A stretch of 64,000 nt of DNA from a phage, in the sequence record PX880101.1; one strand, given 5' to 3'. The position numbers and the translations under genes were made by a program. The notes under the pieces were generated by a model, which was not told the DNA's origin, did no database searches, and was given only the letters and a program-made list of their open reading frames with translations. Positions 3,452 through 63,810 of this stretch are shown here, one piece after another; positions within the stretch are counted from its first letter, which is position 1, and every line of letters starts with the position of its first letter.

Positions 3452-3702
3452 CGACCATCTTCTGAGGTGATATAGTTTCCACAACAACTAAGAGAGGAGA
3501 GCACTGTGGAGACTAAAATCTTAATTCTTGCTGTGGTAGATACAACCGAAGGAGCTATATTCGAATCTGCAGGAGGGTATTTCTACCTACCATACGGAAA
3601 AAGAACTTCCGAGCCAAGTAAAGATTCAATCCTCAAAGTGTTCCCGTGTGCTTTCTGGCTGGAGATTTTGGTATAAGATTGCAGAGGATTTTGGAGAGAA
3701 TT

Positions 3703-57471: not shown

Positions 57472-57822
57472 ATGAAAGATGGGGATAAGCTGCTATATCT
57501 TAAAGTCCCCCTTGAAATACTGTCTATGTCAAAAGTTTTGAATGACACAACTGGAGAGGTTGTTGTTCTTGACTTGTATGACAAGATCGTATACTGCTAC
57601 CTGCACAACTGGTATAAGCTTGGAGGAAATTCACGCTTCACACCCAGCACAAGGAAAATTGCAGCAGATGTTGGGATAAAGAAAACAAAAGCAGCAGCGT
57701 GCGTTAAAACTTTAGAGTGTGCAGGGGTGGTTGAAATATCCACACAAGGGAGAGGTAAAAGATGCACATTTTCCAAAGTTTTGCCACCAGAAGAAGTTAT
57801 TCGGATGTCAACAACTGGTTAG
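57472..57822 (+). CDS. hypothetical protein, possible HTH DNA-binding
   Basis: C-terminal STRKIAADVGIKKTKAAACVKTLECAGVV resembles a helix-turn-helix; lies just upstream of the palindromic iteron array. Confidence 0.4.
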   Translation: MKDGDKLLYLKVPLEILSMSKVLNDTTGEVVVLDLYDKIVYCYLHNWYKLGGNSRFTPSTRKIAADVGIKKTKAAACVKTLECAGVVEISTQGRGKRCTFSKVLPPEEVIRMSTTG

Positions 57823-57896
57823 ACCAGTAAAAACTTAAATATCTGTACTATAAGGATTCGTATGTTTTATGTTCGCTCTAGAATAGAGGTCAGTAA

Positions 57897-57979
57897 CTGT
57901 CCGTGATACGGACACTACTGTCCGTCACGCGGACACATCTGCCCGTAATACGGACACTAACTGTCCGTGATACGGACAC
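57897..57979. repeat. four tandem ~19 bp units each containing inverted repeat GTCCGT-N-ACGGAC, ~21 bp period
   Basis: ctgtccgtgatacggacac at 57897, 57918 (variant), 57938 (variant), 57961. Confidence 0.7.
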
Positions 57980-58120
57980 ATAAAGAATATAACTAAAATA
58001 ACTAAATAATAAAAAAATAAAAGATCTAGTACTTATGGTACTAAAGTACATATACTTAACTTATGTAGAATATACCAGATCCTAAGTACCATGTTTTAAA
58101 TTTATTACTTACTATAGGTA

Positions 58121-58370
58121 GTGTCGGCCCTTCATTGGCACTCGCCTACGAGGGGCGAGATGCCGGGCCTCCATAGTGCACACATGCAGGTCTGTTAACA
58201 TGTGTGGGAGCGAAGCGATAGAGCAGGCCAAAGGCCGAGCACTAATGTGGACCACCGACGAAAGCTTGCCAGCGCCGTAAGGAGTCGGTTGAGAGCCTCC
58301 CGCGCGAGTTTGGATAAAGTTTATGTGTGGAAACGGACAATGAGGCCCCTAAATCGCTCCACAGCCATAT
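58121..58370 (+). other. GC-rich ORF-free island, candidate structured non-coding RNA
   Basis: Sharp GC-rich island without a long ORF between an AT-rich stretch and gene 58467; several local inverted repeats. Confidence 0.3.
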
Positions 58371-58466
58371 AAACTATACCAAGTAAGGCAATCGCACCAG
58401 TTCGATAGAAAAGCTCGTTACAAAGCGATACAGTGAGTTTTTCTATAACTTGAAGAGGAGGCAGCT

Positions 58467-59045
58467 ATGAGTCCACGCAAAGATGACCGTGAAAAGATTG
58501 CAAAACGTTATCAGAATGAAGAACAGATGGAGAAAACTTTCAAGTGGAAGCCAGGTTTCCAGCGTAATCATTCTAACGCTCGTGATCGTAAGCATCCGGA
58601 TAAGTGGCTAACACCGCCAAATGATGGCATACAGGTTGGTAATGAGAAGGAGCTGTCACCAGGAAAAGATGGCAACTACATTCGCACTAAGGAAGCAGGT
58701 CCAAAGGATGACAGCTATCTTGTAGATAAGGTTCTTGATGGTATTGATGTAGATGTTGACACTTCACGAAACCTTTTTCTTGGTTGGTATCGTACAGGGT
58801 TTTTCGACATCAAGGCTATTCGTCGTGTTTGTGATATTAAAAAGTCTGCCTATGATGATGACTCTCTACATCGCACTCTGAGACAATACTCAGAGAGATA
58901 CGGTCATCCAGTTATCACTCTTGACGATATTAACGAAGTGATGTATCATGCAGAGGTTGTTGCAGGTAGATTCGGTGATGCATATCTCGGTATTCTTTCT
59001 GCAAAAGATGAGGTAATGTTAAATAAAATTTACTATGAACGCTGA
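58467..59045 (+). CDS. hypothetical protein
   Basis: ORF with gaggagg RBS. Confidence 0.5.
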   Translation: MSPRKDDREKIAKRYQNEEQMEKTFKWKPGFQRNHSNARDRKHPDKWLTPPNDGIQVGNEKELSPGKDGNYIRTKEAGPKDDSYLVDKVLDGIDVDVDTSRNLFLGWYRTGFFDIKAIRRVCDIKKSAYDDDSLHRTLRQYSERYGHPVITLDDINEVMYHAEVVAGRFGDAYLGILSAKDEVMLNKIYYER

Positions 59046-59244
59046 GGGGCGCTTAATGAACAACCCGGTAGCAAAGAACTGTAATAAGTTCAACAAGTCT
59101 GCAATTCACACTGACAGGAAAAAGAGCTGGTCTCCTGACATTGACGAGGAGCTTGAGAGTTACTTTGAAGACCTGGTCACCAATGCAGATGAGGTTGCGA
59201 TTAAAGAATACGCAGACAGGAAGGATAAGGCCGGAATCTGTTGA
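59035..59244 (+). CDS. hypothetical small protein
   Basis: ORF; start uncertain. Confidence 0.35.
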   Translation: MNAEGRLMNNPVAKNCNKFNKSAIHTDRKKSWSPDIDEELESYFEDLVTNADEVAIKEYADRKDKAGIC

Positions 59245-59320
59245 CAAAAATAGTGTTACCTGATAAGATCTGCAATATGATGTGATGCAATTTTAACTTA
59301 CGAGGTCTACAGGTAATGCT

Positions 59321-59563
59321 ATGTTTAAGGTTAAGCTCGTTTTTCGTTCCATGAATGAGGATTATTTAGAAGATGAAGGTGAATTTCGTGCACTGGATGA
59401 TGCAATAGATTTTGCCAACGACTTAGCTTGTATGAATACAGGTTATGGGCTATGTTGTTGGGATGGTGGTGTTCAGATCGGTGATAGCAAGATCTTCTAC
59501 TTCTACCCTGAGCCTGATAACAAACAAATTAAGTATGTTTTATTTATTTGTGCTTTACAATGA
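59321..59563 (+). CDS. hypothetical protein
   Basis: ORF with TTGACA...-10 promoter-like sequence upstream. Confidence 0.45.
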   Translation: MFKVKLVFRSMNEDYLEDEGEFRALDDAIDFANDLACMNTGYGLCCWDGGVQIGDSKIFYFYPEPDNKQIKYVLFICALQ

Positions 59564-59852
59564 GGTTGTTTTCGTGTATCATGATGAATATCCAATTTAA
59601 AGATGAATTTGATGGCTTTATCTCTGGATGCTTTGAAACAGGGTTCAGAGAAGACTGAGTTCCCCTTAGAGGGCTTGATAGTGCACCACACTTAAAATGG
59701 TAGGGGCAGCCAGCACATGACGATGTGACCCCAGCCAACCTGTAACAAGGTCGAGCCGAAGCGCGGGTAATAGGCCTCTGGTAACCCACTTGTTGGGTCT
59801 TGCTGGTCCAGGACGCTGGACAAGTCGCAGGGAATACCACCCTGCGGCGAAC

Positions 59853-59881
59853 TTGACAATCAGTATTTGCTATGATAAAAT
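59853..59881 (+). promoter_or_regulatory. sigma70-like promoter (TTGACA-N17-TAAAAT)
   Basis: Hexamers upstream of ORF 59910. Confidence 0.5.
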
Positions 59882-59909
59882 CCACCTATCACGTGATAAT
59901 GGAGGAAAC

Positions 59910-60248
59910 ATGGCGGATACAACTAAAAAGCGTCGCCGTAGAGGCAGACCTCTGAAAGAGGAGTCCAACGCCATTCAGCTAGAGAAGAACATCCTTGATA
60001 TGAAGGAATCTTTTATAGCGATGGTTCCAGAAGCTCACAAAGTTTTAAGAGAGCTGATGTTGGACCCGAAAACCAAACAAAATATTCGTCAAAGCATTGC
60101 AGAGTATGTTCTTGATAAGGCAGACCGAATGCAGGAAGAATATGATGAGATGTTTGGTGAAGAGGAAGAGGTGGTAGTGGAAGAGGCTGAAAAACCAGCA
60201 CCTTTTATGCCATTTACTACAGAAATACAGCCTGTTAGCAATAGCTAA
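59910..60248 (+). CDS. small DNA-binding-like protein (RRRRGRP N-terminus, acidic C-terminus); possibly terminase small subunit
   Basis: ATG after ggagga RBS; KKRRRRGRPLKEE; the ORF-track start further upstream lacks an RBS. Confidence 0.4.
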   Translation: MADTTKKRRRRGRPLKEESNAIQLEKNILDMKESFIAMVPEAHKVLRELMLDPKTKQNIRQSIAEYVLDKADRMQEEYDEMFGEEEEVVVEEAEKPAPFMPFTTEIQPVSNS

Positions 60249-60344: not shown

Positions 60345-60419
60345 GCCCTGTTAGCTTAGTGGATAAAGCAGCGGCCTTCTAAGCCGTTGACACTGGTTCG
60401 AGTCCAGTACGGGGTGCCA
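60345..60419 (+). tRNA. tRNA-Arg (anticodon TCT)
   Basis: Hand-folded cloverleaf: acceptor GCCCTGT/ACGGGGT with G-U pairs, loop CTTCTAA, T-loop TTCGAGT, encoded CCA. Confidence 0.75.
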
Positions 60420-60423
60420 AATT

Positions 60424-60510
60424 GGGGAGTTATCCCGTAGAGGTAGCGGTGTAGACTGTAAATCTATTGTCATTGCGACTCGGGTGGTTCGACTCCACCA
60501 CTCCCCACCA
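60424..60510 (+). tRNA. tRNA-Tyr (anticodon GTA)
   Basis: Acceptor GGGGAGT/ACTCCCC, loop CTGTAAA, long variable arm, T-loop TTCGACT, CCA. Confidence 0.8.
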
Positions 60511-60624
60511 AATTTATATTTTTAGATGCATAAATAATACAGATAATGGCATTGATATTTATCGTCGTTTATACTAGTCACTAACTGCTCGAAAATCAGT
60601 GTCATTATCAGTATAATTTATAAA

Positions 60625-60715
60625 GGAGGGTAGGGAGCAATGGTGCTCAAGCGGTCTTGAAAACCGTCCCGTTGGGTATGACTCGATGATGGTTCGATTC
60701 CATTACTCTCCGCCA
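60625..60715 (+). tRNA. tRNA-Ser (anticodon TGA)
   Basis: Acceptor GGAGGGT/ACTCTCC, loop CTTGAAA, long variable arm, T-loop TTCGATT, CCA. Confidence 0.7.
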
Positions 60716-60813
60716 CATTGTTGACCTTGTAATTAAGCGAAAGCCGGAAGCAGAACCGGATTATCAAATGTTACAGTCGTCATCGCCGACTAGCAACATG
60801 GTCAACATACTGA

Positions 60814-60912
60814 GCTAGGTAAGCCCTTTGGCAAGGGCGAGGATTTTTAATCCTGAAAATAGACGAGGTAGTAGTTGAATACATAGGTGGTTCGATTCCA
60901 TCACCTAGCACC
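60814..60912 (+). tRNA. aberrant tRNA-like element (possible Lys-TTT loop) with ~29 nt insertion before the T-arm
   Basis: Perfect acceptor GCTAGGT/ACCTAGC, D-arm GCCC-TTTGGCAA-GGGC, T-loop GGTTCGATTCC, but oversized variable region and imperfect anticodon stem; no encoded CCA. Confidence 0.35.
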
Positions 60913-60917
60913 TTTTT

Positions 60918-60993
60918 GCTGATGTAGCACAATCGGTAGTGCAATTGATTTGTAATCAATAGGTTGTAGGTTCAAGTCCTGCCATCAGCACCA
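60918..60993 (+). tRNA. tRNA-Thr (anticodon TGT)
   Basis: Acceptor GCTGATG/CATCAGC, D-arm GCAC/GTGC, loop TTTGTAA, T-loop TTCAAGT, CCA. Confidence 0.8.
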
Positions 60994-60994
60994 A

Positions 60995-61069
60995 GGCCCT
61001 GTAGCTGGAAGGTTCAAGCAAGCGACTCATAATCGCCAGACGGTGGTTCAATTCCACCCAGGGCCACCA
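60995..61069 (+). tRNA. tRNA-Met (anticodon CAT; could be Ile-lysidine type)
   Basis: Acceptor GGCCCTG/CAGGGCC, loop CTCATAA, T-loop TTCAATT, CCA; no initiator-type features. Confidence 0.7.
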
Positions 61070-61080
61070 AATAATAAATA

Positions 61081-61157
61081 CTCCGCGTAGCTCAGCTTGG
61101 TAGAGCGCCTGATTTGGGATCAGGAGGTCGAGTGTTCGAATCACTCCGTGGAGACCA
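61081..61157 (+). tRNA. tRNA-Pro (anticodon TGG)
   Basis: Acceptor CTCCGCG/CGTGGAG (C1:G72), D-arm GCTC/GAGC, loop TTTGGGA, T-loop TTCGAAT, CCA. Confidence 0.75.
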
Positions 61158-61979: not shown

Positions 61980-62263
61980 GAGTTGCCACACTGTTTATTG
62001 CGTGCTTGTTATTATGTGGGTGTGCAACCAGCGTTGAGAGAGAATACAAGATTGACCCTCCGGATGTAGGAAGGTTGATTGTTAAACCCCCAGAAGGTGC
62101 CATGAAACCACCTGCTAAAGCTATGCCTTTGAAGAAAGGTGCGCCAGATGCAGTGAATTCTGGCATTATGAGGGATAATAATCTGTCTTGTAGCAATGAT
62201 AGAGCTAAATTGATCATTTTGCAAGACTATATTAGAACACTGTTTCCAAAGGAGAGAGGTTAA
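61976..62263 (+). CDS. putative o-spanin (Rz1-like outer-membrane lipoprotein)
   Basis: Signal peptide with lipobox-like LLCGC, proline-rich mature part; start overlaps upstream stop. Confidence 0.5.
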   Translation: MRVATLFIACLLLCGCATSVEREYKIDPPDVGRLIVKPPEGAMKPPAKAMPLKKGAPDAVNSGIMRDNNLSCSNDRAKLIILQDYIRTLFPKERG

Positions 62264-63810
62264 TGTCTAAGATTTACGGACCGTGTTCTGAAAAGCAGAA
62301 GATGATCCTCGAAAACGATGCAGATATCTTGGTAATCGGCGGTGCCGCAGGGTCTGGCAAGTCGTTCCTCTTGCAGTTGATGCCACTTAAAATTATTGAT
62401 GACCCCCACAGCTCTGTGGTTATGTTCCGAAGAACAACCCCACAGTTGGAAGGTGAGGGTGGACTATGGCCTAAAGCAGTAGCTATTTATAGTGATCTGC
62501 CTGAAAACATTAAGCCAAAGTTCAGAGAGAAGGATCATAAGTTCATTTTTCCACGGTTTGATCCGAACACTGGTAAGTGGGATAGAAGCAAAAAGGGAGC
62601 TGTTGTAAAATACTGCCATATGGAGTATGTGCAAGATAAGCTTAACCATCAGGGGCTTGAGTACACCATGGTTTGCTTCGATGAGGGCACGCAGTTCGAA
62701 TGGGAGCAGATAGACTACCTGATGTCTCGTCTGCGATCTCAGTCAAAGTATCCATCAAGAATGGTTATCAGCTGTAACCCCGATTCAGAACACATGCTTG
62801 CCAAACTGGTTAGATGGTGGTTGGACGATGAAGGGTATCCAGATCCGGAGAAATGCGGTAAGAAAAGATATTTTATCCGACGCGACGGGGAATTTATCTG
62901 GGGAGATTCTAAAGAAGAGTTGATAGAGAAATACACCACGGTTAACGGACTTGGTGTAGAGATCAAGCCAAGACCGTTGTCATTCTCGTTCATAGGCGCA
63001 ACAATATTCGATAATCCTGTCTGTTTGAGAGACAACCCAGAATACCTTGCTTTCCTCGAAGGTCTACCAGAGCTGGAAAAAGCTCAGCTTCTCCATGGTA
63101 ACTGGTTTGCAAAGCCTGAGGGTGCAAACTATTTTCAAAGATCTTTCCTTCGTGATGCCGATAGAGTACCTCTTGGGTCAGTATCTTGCAGGGCATGGGA
63201 TAAGGCAGGAACCGAGAGAACTTCCGGTAATAAATTTCCTGACTTTACTGCCAGTATTAAGGTAAGTAAAGATAGCGACGGCTTTTATTACCTGTCCGGT
63301 GATTATTGTCCTGAGAACGTGGATGACGGGAGGTATTCCACAGGTCTGGAAGGCAAGTTCTGTAAAAAGGCTGGTGAACGAGATGTGATCATCAGGAAAC
63401 AGGCGCAGTTCGATGGTGATGATTGCATAATCGTCTTCTCTGTAGACCCAGGGCAGGCAGGTAAGAGTGAGTTCTTAACCTCCTCCAGATCCTTGCTTGC
63501 CGAAGGGTTCAGGGTTGAAGAAGACCCAATGCCTTCCAACAAGTCTAAACTGACAAGGTTCTCACCTTTTGCCAATCTTGCCCAACAAGGAATGGTGAGG
63601 ATTGTAAAATCCAGTTTCCATCCTGATACTCTGGAAGCATTTCTGACTGAACTTGAAAAATTCAACGGGGAAAGATCAACATTTAACAGAAAAGACGACT
63701 GGGCCGACTGCGTAGCTTCTGCGATTAATTTCCTGGAGAAAGAGGAGGTAGCACTTCCTTGTGTGATTCCATCAATCTCATCACCTTCTATGTTCAAGCG
63801 TTTTATCTAA
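62263..63810 (+). CDS. terminase large subunit
   Basis: Walker A ILVIGGAAGSGKS, Walker B MVCFDEGTQ, C-terminal nuclease-like acidic residues, 515 aa. Confidence 0.8.
   Translation: MSKIYGPCSEKQKMILENDADILVIGGAAGSGKSFLLQLMPLKIIDDPHSSVVMFRRTTPQLEGEGGLWPKAVAIYSDLPENIKPKFREKDHKFIFPRFDPNTGKWDRSKKGAVVKYCHMEYVQDKLNHQGLEYTMVCFDEGTQFEWEQIDYLMSRLRSQSKYPSRMVISCNPDSEHMLAKLVRWWLDDEGYPDPEKCGKKRYFIRRDGEFIWGDSKEELIEKYTTVNGLGVEIKPRPLSFSFIGATIFDNPVCLRDNPEYLAFLEGLPELEKAQLLHGNWFAKPEGANYFQRSFLRDADRVPLGSVSCRAWDKAGTERTSGNKFPDFTASIKVSKDSDGFYYLSGDYCPENVDDGRYSTGLEGKFCKKAGERDVIIRKQAQFDGDDCIIVFSVDPGQAGKSEFLTSSRSLLAEGFRVEEDPMPSNKSKLTRFSPFANLAQQGMVRIVKSSFHPDTLEAFLTELEKFNGERSTFNRKDDWADCVASAINFLEKEEVALPCVIPSISSPSMFKRFI

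Follow-up and report, generated by a model that had tools for sequence, protein, structure and literature searches.

A candidate family of structured RNAs accompanying tRNA genes in rV5-like, T4-like and other phages

Results

The element and its locus

Analysis was performed on a stretch of phage DNA of 64,000 nucleotides (nt) from sequence record PX880101.1, hereafter referred to as the window, and was centred on a 194-nt element on its plus strand. The source of the window is an rV5-like coliphage (Vequintavirus): the 1 kb surrounding the element is 100% identical to the corresponding region of Escherichia phage A6-1, and 95–99.9% identical to that of 118 further rV5-like phages. In the rV5 and Gotham records, no feature is annotated from the end of a small gene (59563) to the promoter of the gene that begins at 59910, and in several deposited records a hypothetical protein is drawn over the segment. 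The features required for the description of the locus are as follows.

59241 to 59269, plus strand: promoter P75 (TTGACA-17-TAAGAT), from which transcripts covering the RNA in the window's lineage probably originate.
59544 to 59885, minus strand: spurious open reading frame (ORF) of 113 amino acids (aa), not conserved.
59560 to 59658, plus strand: small ORF of 32 aa, annotated in A6-1, whose start overlaps the stop of an upstream 80-aa gene (ATGA).
59659 to 59852, plus strand: the whole structured RNA of the rV5 type (194 nt), which begins with GUUCCCCUUAGAGGG and ends with GCGAAC; conserved in 14 rV5-like sequences.
59853 to 59881, plus strand: promoter P74, the sigma-70-type promoter of gene 59910 (rV5 annotation), which bounds the RNA and lies outside it.
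60345 to 61157, plus strand: cluster of seven tRNA genes, beginning 575 nt 3′ of the core of the element, on the same strand.

A first-pass annotation, made from the sequence alone, had singled out the interval 59600–59880 as a GC-rich intergenic segment that might represent a small RNA, a leader or a regulatory structure. The G+C fraction is indeed elevated (0.505–0.535 at 59600–59899, as compared with 0.355–0.40 immediately upstream and approximately 0.42 downstream). The promoter reported just downstream is real: TTGACA-17-TAAAAT, at 59853–59881, matches the consensus at 11 of 12 positions, has a TG extension, precedes an ATG at 59910 and corresponds to P74 of the rV5 reference record. The interval itself stands only in part, as the structured RNA occupies 59659–59852, and 59600–59658, the first 59 nt, are the 3′ part of the small ORF and lie outside the RNA.

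Homologues in T4-like and other phages

A blastn search with 59570–59900 retrieved 585 records, comprising 119 rV5-like and approximately 460 T4-like phages. The block common to the two groups is 43–48 nt long (59727–59774 of the window) and 85–90% identical. In T4, Bp7, S16, JS10 and CBH8, this block is situated in the spacer directly upstream of vs.8, on the gene strand; the T4 copy lies between denV and vs.8, and approximately 1,000 T4-like phages carry the core at that position. Searched in turn with blastn, the T4 copy retrieved 1,128 phage records.

A pattern scan (ACCTGTAANAAGGTCRAG-N6-12-GGTAA) identified 51 loci in IMG/VR and 49 in metagenomes; fetched loci are designated below by L numbers. 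The loci form about 20 sequence clusters with unrelated flanks, and the sequence around the core differs between lineages. Cultured members, in addition to the T4- and rV5-like phages, are Kagunavirus fEg-Eco19, Klebsiella phage KpCHEMY26 and Vibrio phages of 60 kb and 132–137 kb, and the named hosts of the carrier phages are Escherichia, Klebsiella, Salmonella, Serratia and Vibrio. The element is common to T4-like, Kagunavirus and Vibrio phages and accompanies tRNA genes, neither of which had been noted in the first-pass annotation.

The same pattern gave two matches in 185,579 bacterial and archaeal genomes, both at chance level (24–25 bits), and nothing similar was found in 5,426 complete E. 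coli genomes. Judged from these searches, the family appears to be restricted to phages and essentially absent from bacteria and archaea. An origin from the host, or mimicry of a host-encoded RNA, was also considered, and was rejected in view of the lack of any match in E. coli and of essentially any in the 185,579 genomes.

Two individual loci may be mentioned here. A T4-like metagenomic contig of 177,643 bp (L036, 5091–5253, minus strand) carries two tandem cores approximately 110 nt apart, the second with compensatory changes in one hairpin (Pb, below). In Vibrio phage 184E37.1 (MW824371.1; L015), about 1.2 kb without an annotated gene (990–2173) lies 3′ of a tRNA-Gly gene, with the core at 1506–1536; there, the element may belong to a non-coding RNA of much greater length.

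Fold of the core and covariation

The core of the family, approximately 45 nt in length, consists of a closing helix (Pa), a hairpin (Pb) and a mini-hairpin (Pc) arranged about a three-way junction. Pa comprises four pairs and one bulged purine, Pb has the form ACCU-GUAANA-AGGU, and Pc is a stem of 2–3 bp, the first pair of which is always G-C. Both joiners, C-R-A-G and (C)GGUAA, as well as the bulged purine, are invariant or nearly so.

This fold was derived by hand from variants and was then tested. In the seed alignment of 33 sequences, 96.1% of cells were paired, versus 77.6% after shuffling, and the covariation score was 0.446 versus 0.104; none of 500 shuffles reached either value, and slid partners gave scores of no more than 0.073. 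Similar results were obtained with 102 model-aligned matches (72 distinct), in which 95.6% of cells were paired, versus 77.8% after shuffling, and seven of the ten pairs had changed on both sides. For the 72 distinct sequences, the covariation score was 0.432 versus 0.109, a value again reached in none of 500 shuffles, with slid partners at no more than 0.062. Pairs in Pa were seen as CG, GC, AU and UA (one of them as CG in 44 sequences, GC in 14 and AU in 13), and a Pc pair occurred as CG (47), UA (17), GC (3) and AU (1). Pb also varies in copies found by the model only: GCCU/AGGC in the second tandem copy of L036, ACCA-GUAA-UGGU, with a GNRA tetraloop, in L093, ACCA/UGGU in Vibrio phage 1.012.O and ACCU/GGGU in fEg-Eco19.

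Applied to the window, the covariance model (R1) matched 59728–59780 with 53.6 bits (E = 3e-16), on the plus strand only. This was the sole match with E < 0.01 in the 64 kb, the next-best scoring 15.5 bits. These data, together with the compensatory changes, support the proposal of a small RNA, leader or regulatory structure in the first-pass annotation, in that the segment is a copy of a family of structured RNAs that is, very probably, real, conserved and strand-specific.

Nineteen cells of the alignment are G-U pairs. Since these would be A-C mismatches on the opposite strand, the structure belongs to the plus strand. This observation bears on the proposition that the segment is not an RNA at all, and represents instead a DNA-level signal (an origin or packaging site) or a genuine minus-strand protein gene. 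A replication-initiator-like gene with iterons is located 1.8 kb upstream, gene 59910 is weakly similar to small terminase subunits (E = 0.06) and, as noted above, some records show a hypothetical protein over the segment. The compensatory changes, however, include G-U pairs that are valid on the plus strand only, and the core occupies unrelated genomic positions in unrelated phages. The minus-strand ORF, moreover, does not survive intact in relatives, owing to frame shifts or stops, and the proposition is regarded as extremely improbable. In the close relatives L006 and L092, a 1-nt insertion or deletion moves the N-terminal half of the ORF to another frame. In a second rV5-like lineage it is stop-broken, with a longest open stretch of 44–57 aa in three of four members and 95 aa in L072. 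The ORF does exist in the window, but the earlier description of it as spurious is correct, as its frame is not kept in relatives.

Architecture of the RNA in the window

The limits of the RNA were set by alignment of 14 rV5-like sequences from two lineages, that of the window and the second lineage just mentioned, which is known from metagenomes only. At the 5′ limit (59659, GUUCCCCUUAGAGGG), the second lineage possesses a TTGACA-17-TATACT promoter about 7 nt upstream, so spaced that transcription would begin at the first bases of the RNA. The 3′ limit (59852) falls immediately before the TTGACA of P74. The parts of the RNA, all on the plus strand, are listed here.

59659 to 59692: rV5-specific 5′ module, a CCCU-UAG-AGGG hairpin plus CUUGAUAGUGC, nearly invariant in both rV5-like lineages.
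59703 to 59732: P1/P2 domain, GGGG [CAGCCAG] CACAU-GACG-AUGUG [A] CCCC, with compensatory changes between lineages.
59709 to 59713: 5′ strand of a proposed pseudoknot, GCCAG, in the P1/P2 internal loop, pairing with CUGGU at 59778–82.
59728 to 59780: three-way-junction core, which defines the family (model R1 match).
Within the core: Pa (59734–37 with 59771 and 59773–75); Pb, ACCU-GUAACA-AGGU (59738–51); joiner CGA; Pc (59755–64); joiner GGGUAA; A59772, the bulged purine.
59778 to 59782: 3′ strand of the proposed pseudoknot, CUGGU, directly 3′ of Pa, pairing with 59709–13.
59785 to 59797: hairpin CCCA-CUUGU-UGGG, predicted from the consensus fold, without informative variation.
59806 to 59821: hairpin GUCCAG-GACG-CUGGAC, with compensatory GCUCAG/CUGAGC in L048 and a G-U pair in L006.
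59826 to 59846: 3′ hairpin CGCAGGG-AAUACCA-CCCUGCG, in the window's lineage only, with no U tract after it.

The two inverted repeats reported in the first-pass annotation are both present and are accounted for by this scheme. The first, CACAU-GACG-AUGUG (59714–59727), is P2, enclosed by the GGGG/CCCC of P1 (59703–06 and 59729–32), and the second is the hairpin at 59806–59821. In the second rV5-like lineage, GGGG/CCCC of P1 is replaced by GGAAC/GUUCC and CACAU/AUGUG of P2 by CUACG/CGUAG. The P1/P2 layout is kept, with other sequences, in the T4 and Vibrio types, and a hairpin precedes the common block in both T4 and rV5. The 5′ module, present in a single copy in the window, recurs in the second lineage, whose RNA has a duplicate of it in the 3′ half.

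A pseudoknot between the P1/P2 internal loop and the 4–5 bases that follow Pa is proposed on the basis of the pairs of sequences that occupy these positions. They are GCCAG/CUGGU, GAGG/CCUC, UGAGG/CCUCA and GAGGG/CCCUU in rV5-like lineages; GGGUA/UACCC, GGGAG/CUCCC and ACAAGAA/UUCUUGU in Vibrio lineages; CGGAA/UUCCG in KpCHEMY26-like members; and CGGUU/AGCCG in L019-like members.

No promoter was found at the 5′ end of the RNA in the window, and no terminator-like site was found at its 3′ hairpin or before gene 59910, so that at this locus the RNA has neither a promoter nor a terminator of its own. No terminator-like site was found in the window between P75 and the RNA, either.

Association with tRNA genes and transcription context

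Among the fetched loci, all those with a tRNA gene have their nearest tRNA on the strand of the element. Except in the T4-like phages, most loci have 38–600 nt between the two, with the tRNA on either side, and a tRNA lying upstream can be as close as 38–60 nt. What follows the element varies by lineage: unrelated genes, tRNAs, promoters or a terminator. A search for a protein family that neighbours the element in all lineages, and that might thus be a candidate partner, found none.

The clearest arrangement is that in Vibrio phage 1.012.O (L113, MG592397.1), in which a promoter-like site is followed by a tRNA-Tyr gene, by the element 114 nt further on, and by a bidirectional terminator about 90 nt past the core. 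This unit is on the plus strand, opposed to the flanking structural genes on the minus strand, and no ORF lies downstream. (In the record, the tRNA-Tyr, at 1809–1882 of L113, is on the opposite strand; with both ARAGORN and Rfam it falls on that of the element.) Elsewhere, L079 and the second rV5-like lineage have a promoter at the 5′ end of the RNA, and terminator-like sites occur 130–180 nt downstream of the element in L034 and L045. As the element ends a non-coding tRNA transcription unit in 1.012.O, these results favour a small RNA over a leader of gene 59910.

A cis-acting 5′ leader, similar to a riboswitch, would respond to a ligand or protein and set translation of, or elongation into, the next gene (59910 in the window, vs.8 in the T4-like phages). 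Consistent with such a role, the T4-like element fills the spacer from the upstream stop codon to the ribosome-binding site of vs.8, irrespective of the identity of the upstream gene; the combination of an invariant junction with covarying stems is an aptamer-like pattern; and in the window the RNA and gene 59910 are not separated by a terminator. It is apparent, however, that the genes downstream are unrelated between lineages, that the next feature in many lineages is a tRNA or non-coding DNA, and that in 1.012.O the element is followed by a terminator and then a convergent gene. In JD18, an extra gene separates the element from the probable vs.8 homologue (recognized by position and size only), and in the window a full promoter separates the RNA from gene 59910. 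The 185,579 bacterial and archaeal genomes, furthermore, gave nothing beyond chance matches. Of the features usually looked for in riboswitches, the conserved aptamer-like core is present; there is no expression platform, nor do the downstream genes belong to any one class. A leader is therefore considered improbable.

The element might alternatively act in cis on the nascent transcript, either in processive antitermination, in the manner of HK022 put and lambda nut, or as a nuclease-resistant or processing structure for stable-RNA and early transcripts. Such an element would be in keeping with the adjoining promoter in several lineages, the constant co-orientation with tRNAs, the lack of a terminator in the rV5 arrangement and the boxA-like sequence, UGCUCUUU..GUUGUG, that precedes each KpCHEMY26-like unit. 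In addition, Pb resembles a hairpin of the lambda boxB type (CCU-G.AA.A-AGG), with a GNRA-like loop. On the other side, the element lies 3′ of the tRNAs, not 5′, in several lineages; it is the last item before the terminator in 1.012.O; terminator-like sites follow within 130–180 nt in L034 and L045; and in size and complexity it far exceeds put or nut. As with these elements, it is a phage RNA that may be promoter-proximal, with boxA-like sequences in one lineage, but it differs from them in its three-way junction and proposed pseudoknot, and in its frequent position 3′ of tRNAs or beside a terminator. A function of this kind is considered unlikely.

Some features of the tRNA-bearing loci were observed in passing. 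In KpCHEMY26-like contigs of 46–70 kb (L021, L026, L039 and L043), repeated boxA-like boxes (UGCUCUUU(C/U)CGUUGUG) stand before each of a series of non-coding units and tRNAs, and adjacent units are linked by long stems. The organization is like that of rrn-type antitermination signals placed in an array of stable phage RNAs. The abiF motif of Rfam (RF03085) was matched at 220–251 of L093 and 3624–3655 (minus strand) of L027, with 45 bits, and, weakly, at 541–614 of L078. These lie in marine metagenomic contigs of Vibrio-type phages, directly after the element in L093 and L078, and may be phage copies of the defence-associated RNA.

Comparison with known RNAs

An Rfam scan had been suggested as a check in the first-pass annotation. 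Rfam 15, searched both at the gathering score and permissively (E up to 5 or 10) with the window and 32 related loci, yielded no family on the element; the matches in related loci, all off the element, were to tRNAs, one group I intron and the abiF motifs. Neither ARAGORN nor the Rfam tRNA model detected a tRNA or transfer-messenger RNA in 59500–59900.

The most similar RNAs, in terms of context, are ROOL and GOLLD, which are phage-encoded, often located near tRNA islands, and highly structured, with pseudoknots, and which have no identified protein partner or known function (PMC12286853). The element shares with them its phage origin, its structured nature and the tRNA-island setting. ROOL and GOLLD, in contrast, are 500–800 nt or more in length, are also found in bacterial prophages and form homo-oligomeric cages, whereas the element is 100–200 nt long, has a different core and no bacterial copies, and matches neither Rfam model. 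As it belongs to none of the known systems with which it was compared, the element is provisionally rated, from its sequence and setting, as a new family among the orphan structured phage RNAs of tRNA islands.

T4 itself encodes two small stable RNAs of unknown function, species 1 and 2 (RNA C and RNA D), which are co-transcribed with the tRNAs of its tRNA cluster. Identity of the element with either was rejected, as the core model matches nothing in the T4 tRNA region and the T4 copy lies about 6 kb away.

Small self-cleaving ribozymes are often found in phages and in settings rich in non-coding RNA, and the element occupies a setting of that type. A new class of such ribozymes, processing tRNA-containing or polycistronic phage transcripts, would thus be conceivable, and the invariant three-way junction, the covarying stems and the proposed peripheral tertiary contact resemble a hammerhead-like layout. 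Hammerhead-type ribozymes and three-way-junction aptamers do share with the element a compact junction, invariant joiners, covarying stems and a distal tertiary contact (the last as proposed here). There is, however, no match to them in sequence or by model, in that no Rfam ribozyme family was detected, and the joiners (CRAG, GGUAA) differ. The near-invariant sequence of the Pb stem, furthermore, would be unusual for a ribozyme stem. Self-cleavage is considered very unlikely.

Motif-level resemblances were noted to ribosomal RNAs. The GUAAUA hexaloop that caps helix 44 of 23S rRNA (L11/GTPase-associated centre) has the same form, GUAANA closing a short helix in a three-way junction, but the order of the helices and the joiners differ, so that this is a likeness at the level of the motif and not homology. 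A resemblance to the 16S sequence GUAACAAGGU likewise involves different layouts. Mimicry of the anticodon loop of tRNA-Tyr, directed against Retron-Eco7, was considered as well, as the loop CUGUAA is similar to positions 32–37 of that tRNA. The Retron-Eco7 system cleaves tRNA-Tyr in the variable loop (PMC12673091), and because of this the idea was dropped as an explanation and demoted to a weak lead.

Other features of the window

The small ORF upstream of the RNA encodes the peptide KDEFDGF, with synonymous changes only in L048; the second rV5-like lineage keeps this peptide as an 8-aa ORF. A hairpin, UCUCUGGA...UUCAGAGA (59621–59652), lies inside the small ORF and shows a compensatory change of U-A to C-G in L006 and L048.

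The functions of the neighbouring genes were sought in Pfam and PHROGs, and none was obtained. The product of gene 59910 (112 aa, 59910–60248) has an N-terminal KKRRRRGRP sequence, similar to an AT-hook or arginine-rich motif, and an acidic C-terminal tail. It weakly matches a small terminase subunit chain (7joq_I, E = 0.06), and a large terminase gene lies 2 kb downstream (62263–63810); an assignment as small terminase, which would depend on that single PDB chain, was set aside as a hint. A vs.8 homologue beside the window's copy was also discounted, as the 192-aa ORF at 58467 is unrelated to Vs.8.

Further upstream, 57472–58100 encodes a 116-aa replication-initiator-like protein (PHROG 12838, HTH_36), followed by iterons, ACTGTCCGTGATACGGACAC (at least two copies, 57890–57980), and a very AT-rich stretch (57980–58100). 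This region looks like a replication origin. Next to it is another GC-rich segment, the first of two in this region (58100–58460, G+C fraction 0.53–0.555), which has no annotated feature in most records, is found in rV5-like phages only and, at about 91% identity, varies more than the sequence on either side. A further non-coding RNA is one possibility, and a piece of the origin region another. Kinship with the element was rejected, as the model has no match there (58100–58400) and the segment is confined to rV5-like phages.

Within the tRNA cluster, ARAGORN reports a tRNA-Ser(tga) at 60625–60715 that is not reported by Rfam at the gathering score or annotated in Gotham. At 60814–60912, it reports a 99-nt tRNA with a four-base anticodon (atcc), annotated in Gotham as a 97-nt tRNA-Lys(TTT); an intron or an unusual anticodon loop is possible. 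The CAT tRNA at 60995–61069 is tRNA-Ile2 in Gotham.

Finally, 18 records (MG0656xx) titled 'Campylobacter phage' are 96–99.8% identical in this region to rV5-like phages of E. coli, and their names or hosts look doubtful.

Discussion

The data presented above are, on balance, best explained if the element is a stand-alone stable RNA that is co-expressed with tRNAs, rather than a cis element, and this is considered the probable interpretation. The tRNAs on the same strand, the 1.012.O unit and the terminators of L034 and L045, in the absence of a common protein neighbour, fit a stand-alone RNA better than the leader of a single gene.

The following course of events is envisaged. In the second rV5-like lineage, the RNA would be expressed from its own promoter, situated exactly at the 5′ end. 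In the window's lineage, the end of the small ORF has replaced that promoter, so the RNA would be made from the sigma-70 promoter P75, by transcription through two small genes. Processing would then free the RNA, as a stable species, together with the phage tRNAs. It would act in trans through a rigid tertiary fold to which a partner binds; this partner, be it a small ligand or a macromolecule of the host or phage, would be conserved across γ-proteobacterial hosts. The extreme conservation of about 25 unpaired and junction bases across hosts suggests a precise tertiary fold that recognizes a conserved partner. Given that the element keeps company with tRNA islands and accessory early regions, that partner would most likely be found in tRNA, translation or host-defence biology. 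It is suggested, more tentatively, that the core may be the heart of a new phage RNA effector, that is, a decoy or sponge against host defence directed at tRNA or based on nucleotide signals, or else a new self-cleaving ribozyme. While possible, this more specific suggestion is rather less than probable.

Several points weigh against the stand-alone interpretation, or against the structural evidence that underlies it. The transcript ends, abundance and stability of all members are inferred. In the T4-like phages, the element abuts the ribosome-binding site of vs.8, and in the window no terminator separates the RNA from gene 59910; it may have a role in cis at these loci. Folding energies were not significantly different from those of shuffled sequences on either strand (z = –1.36 and –1.09), nor for the refined interval (z = –1.48). 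The inverted repeats alone are, for this reason, unconvincing, and the case for structure in excess of chance derives from homology and covariation, not from thermodynamic folding. Pb was fixed by the pattern used for retrieval, and in most members the invariance seen there and in the joiners is partly a matter of construction. With regard to the proposed pseudoknot, a generic test of complementarity within versus across lineages gave 12.5 versus 11.4, which is not significant. Lastly, searches of the literature by gene name, topic and literal sequence revealed no description of the element, but a catalogue of approximately 10,000 unnamed viral RNA candidates exists (PMC10690425), and an anonymous entry in it is possible.

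The strongly conserved, covarying fold described here is present in T4, in rV5-like phages used in therapy and biocontrol, in Kagunavirus and in marine Vibrio phages, yet in none of the RNA databases that were scanned. For the segment shown as a hypothetical protein in several deposited records, the annotation is hereby corrected. Orphan structured phage RNAs of tRNA islands are a small set, so far mainly ROOL and GOLLD, to which the family would bring a tractable member. The RNA is short, its core is sharply defined, and the E. coli phages that carry it include model phages amenable to genetics, so the role of such RNAs becomes directly testable. If the proposal of an effector is true, then T4 and more than 1,000 sequenced phages would have carried this RNA unnoticed.

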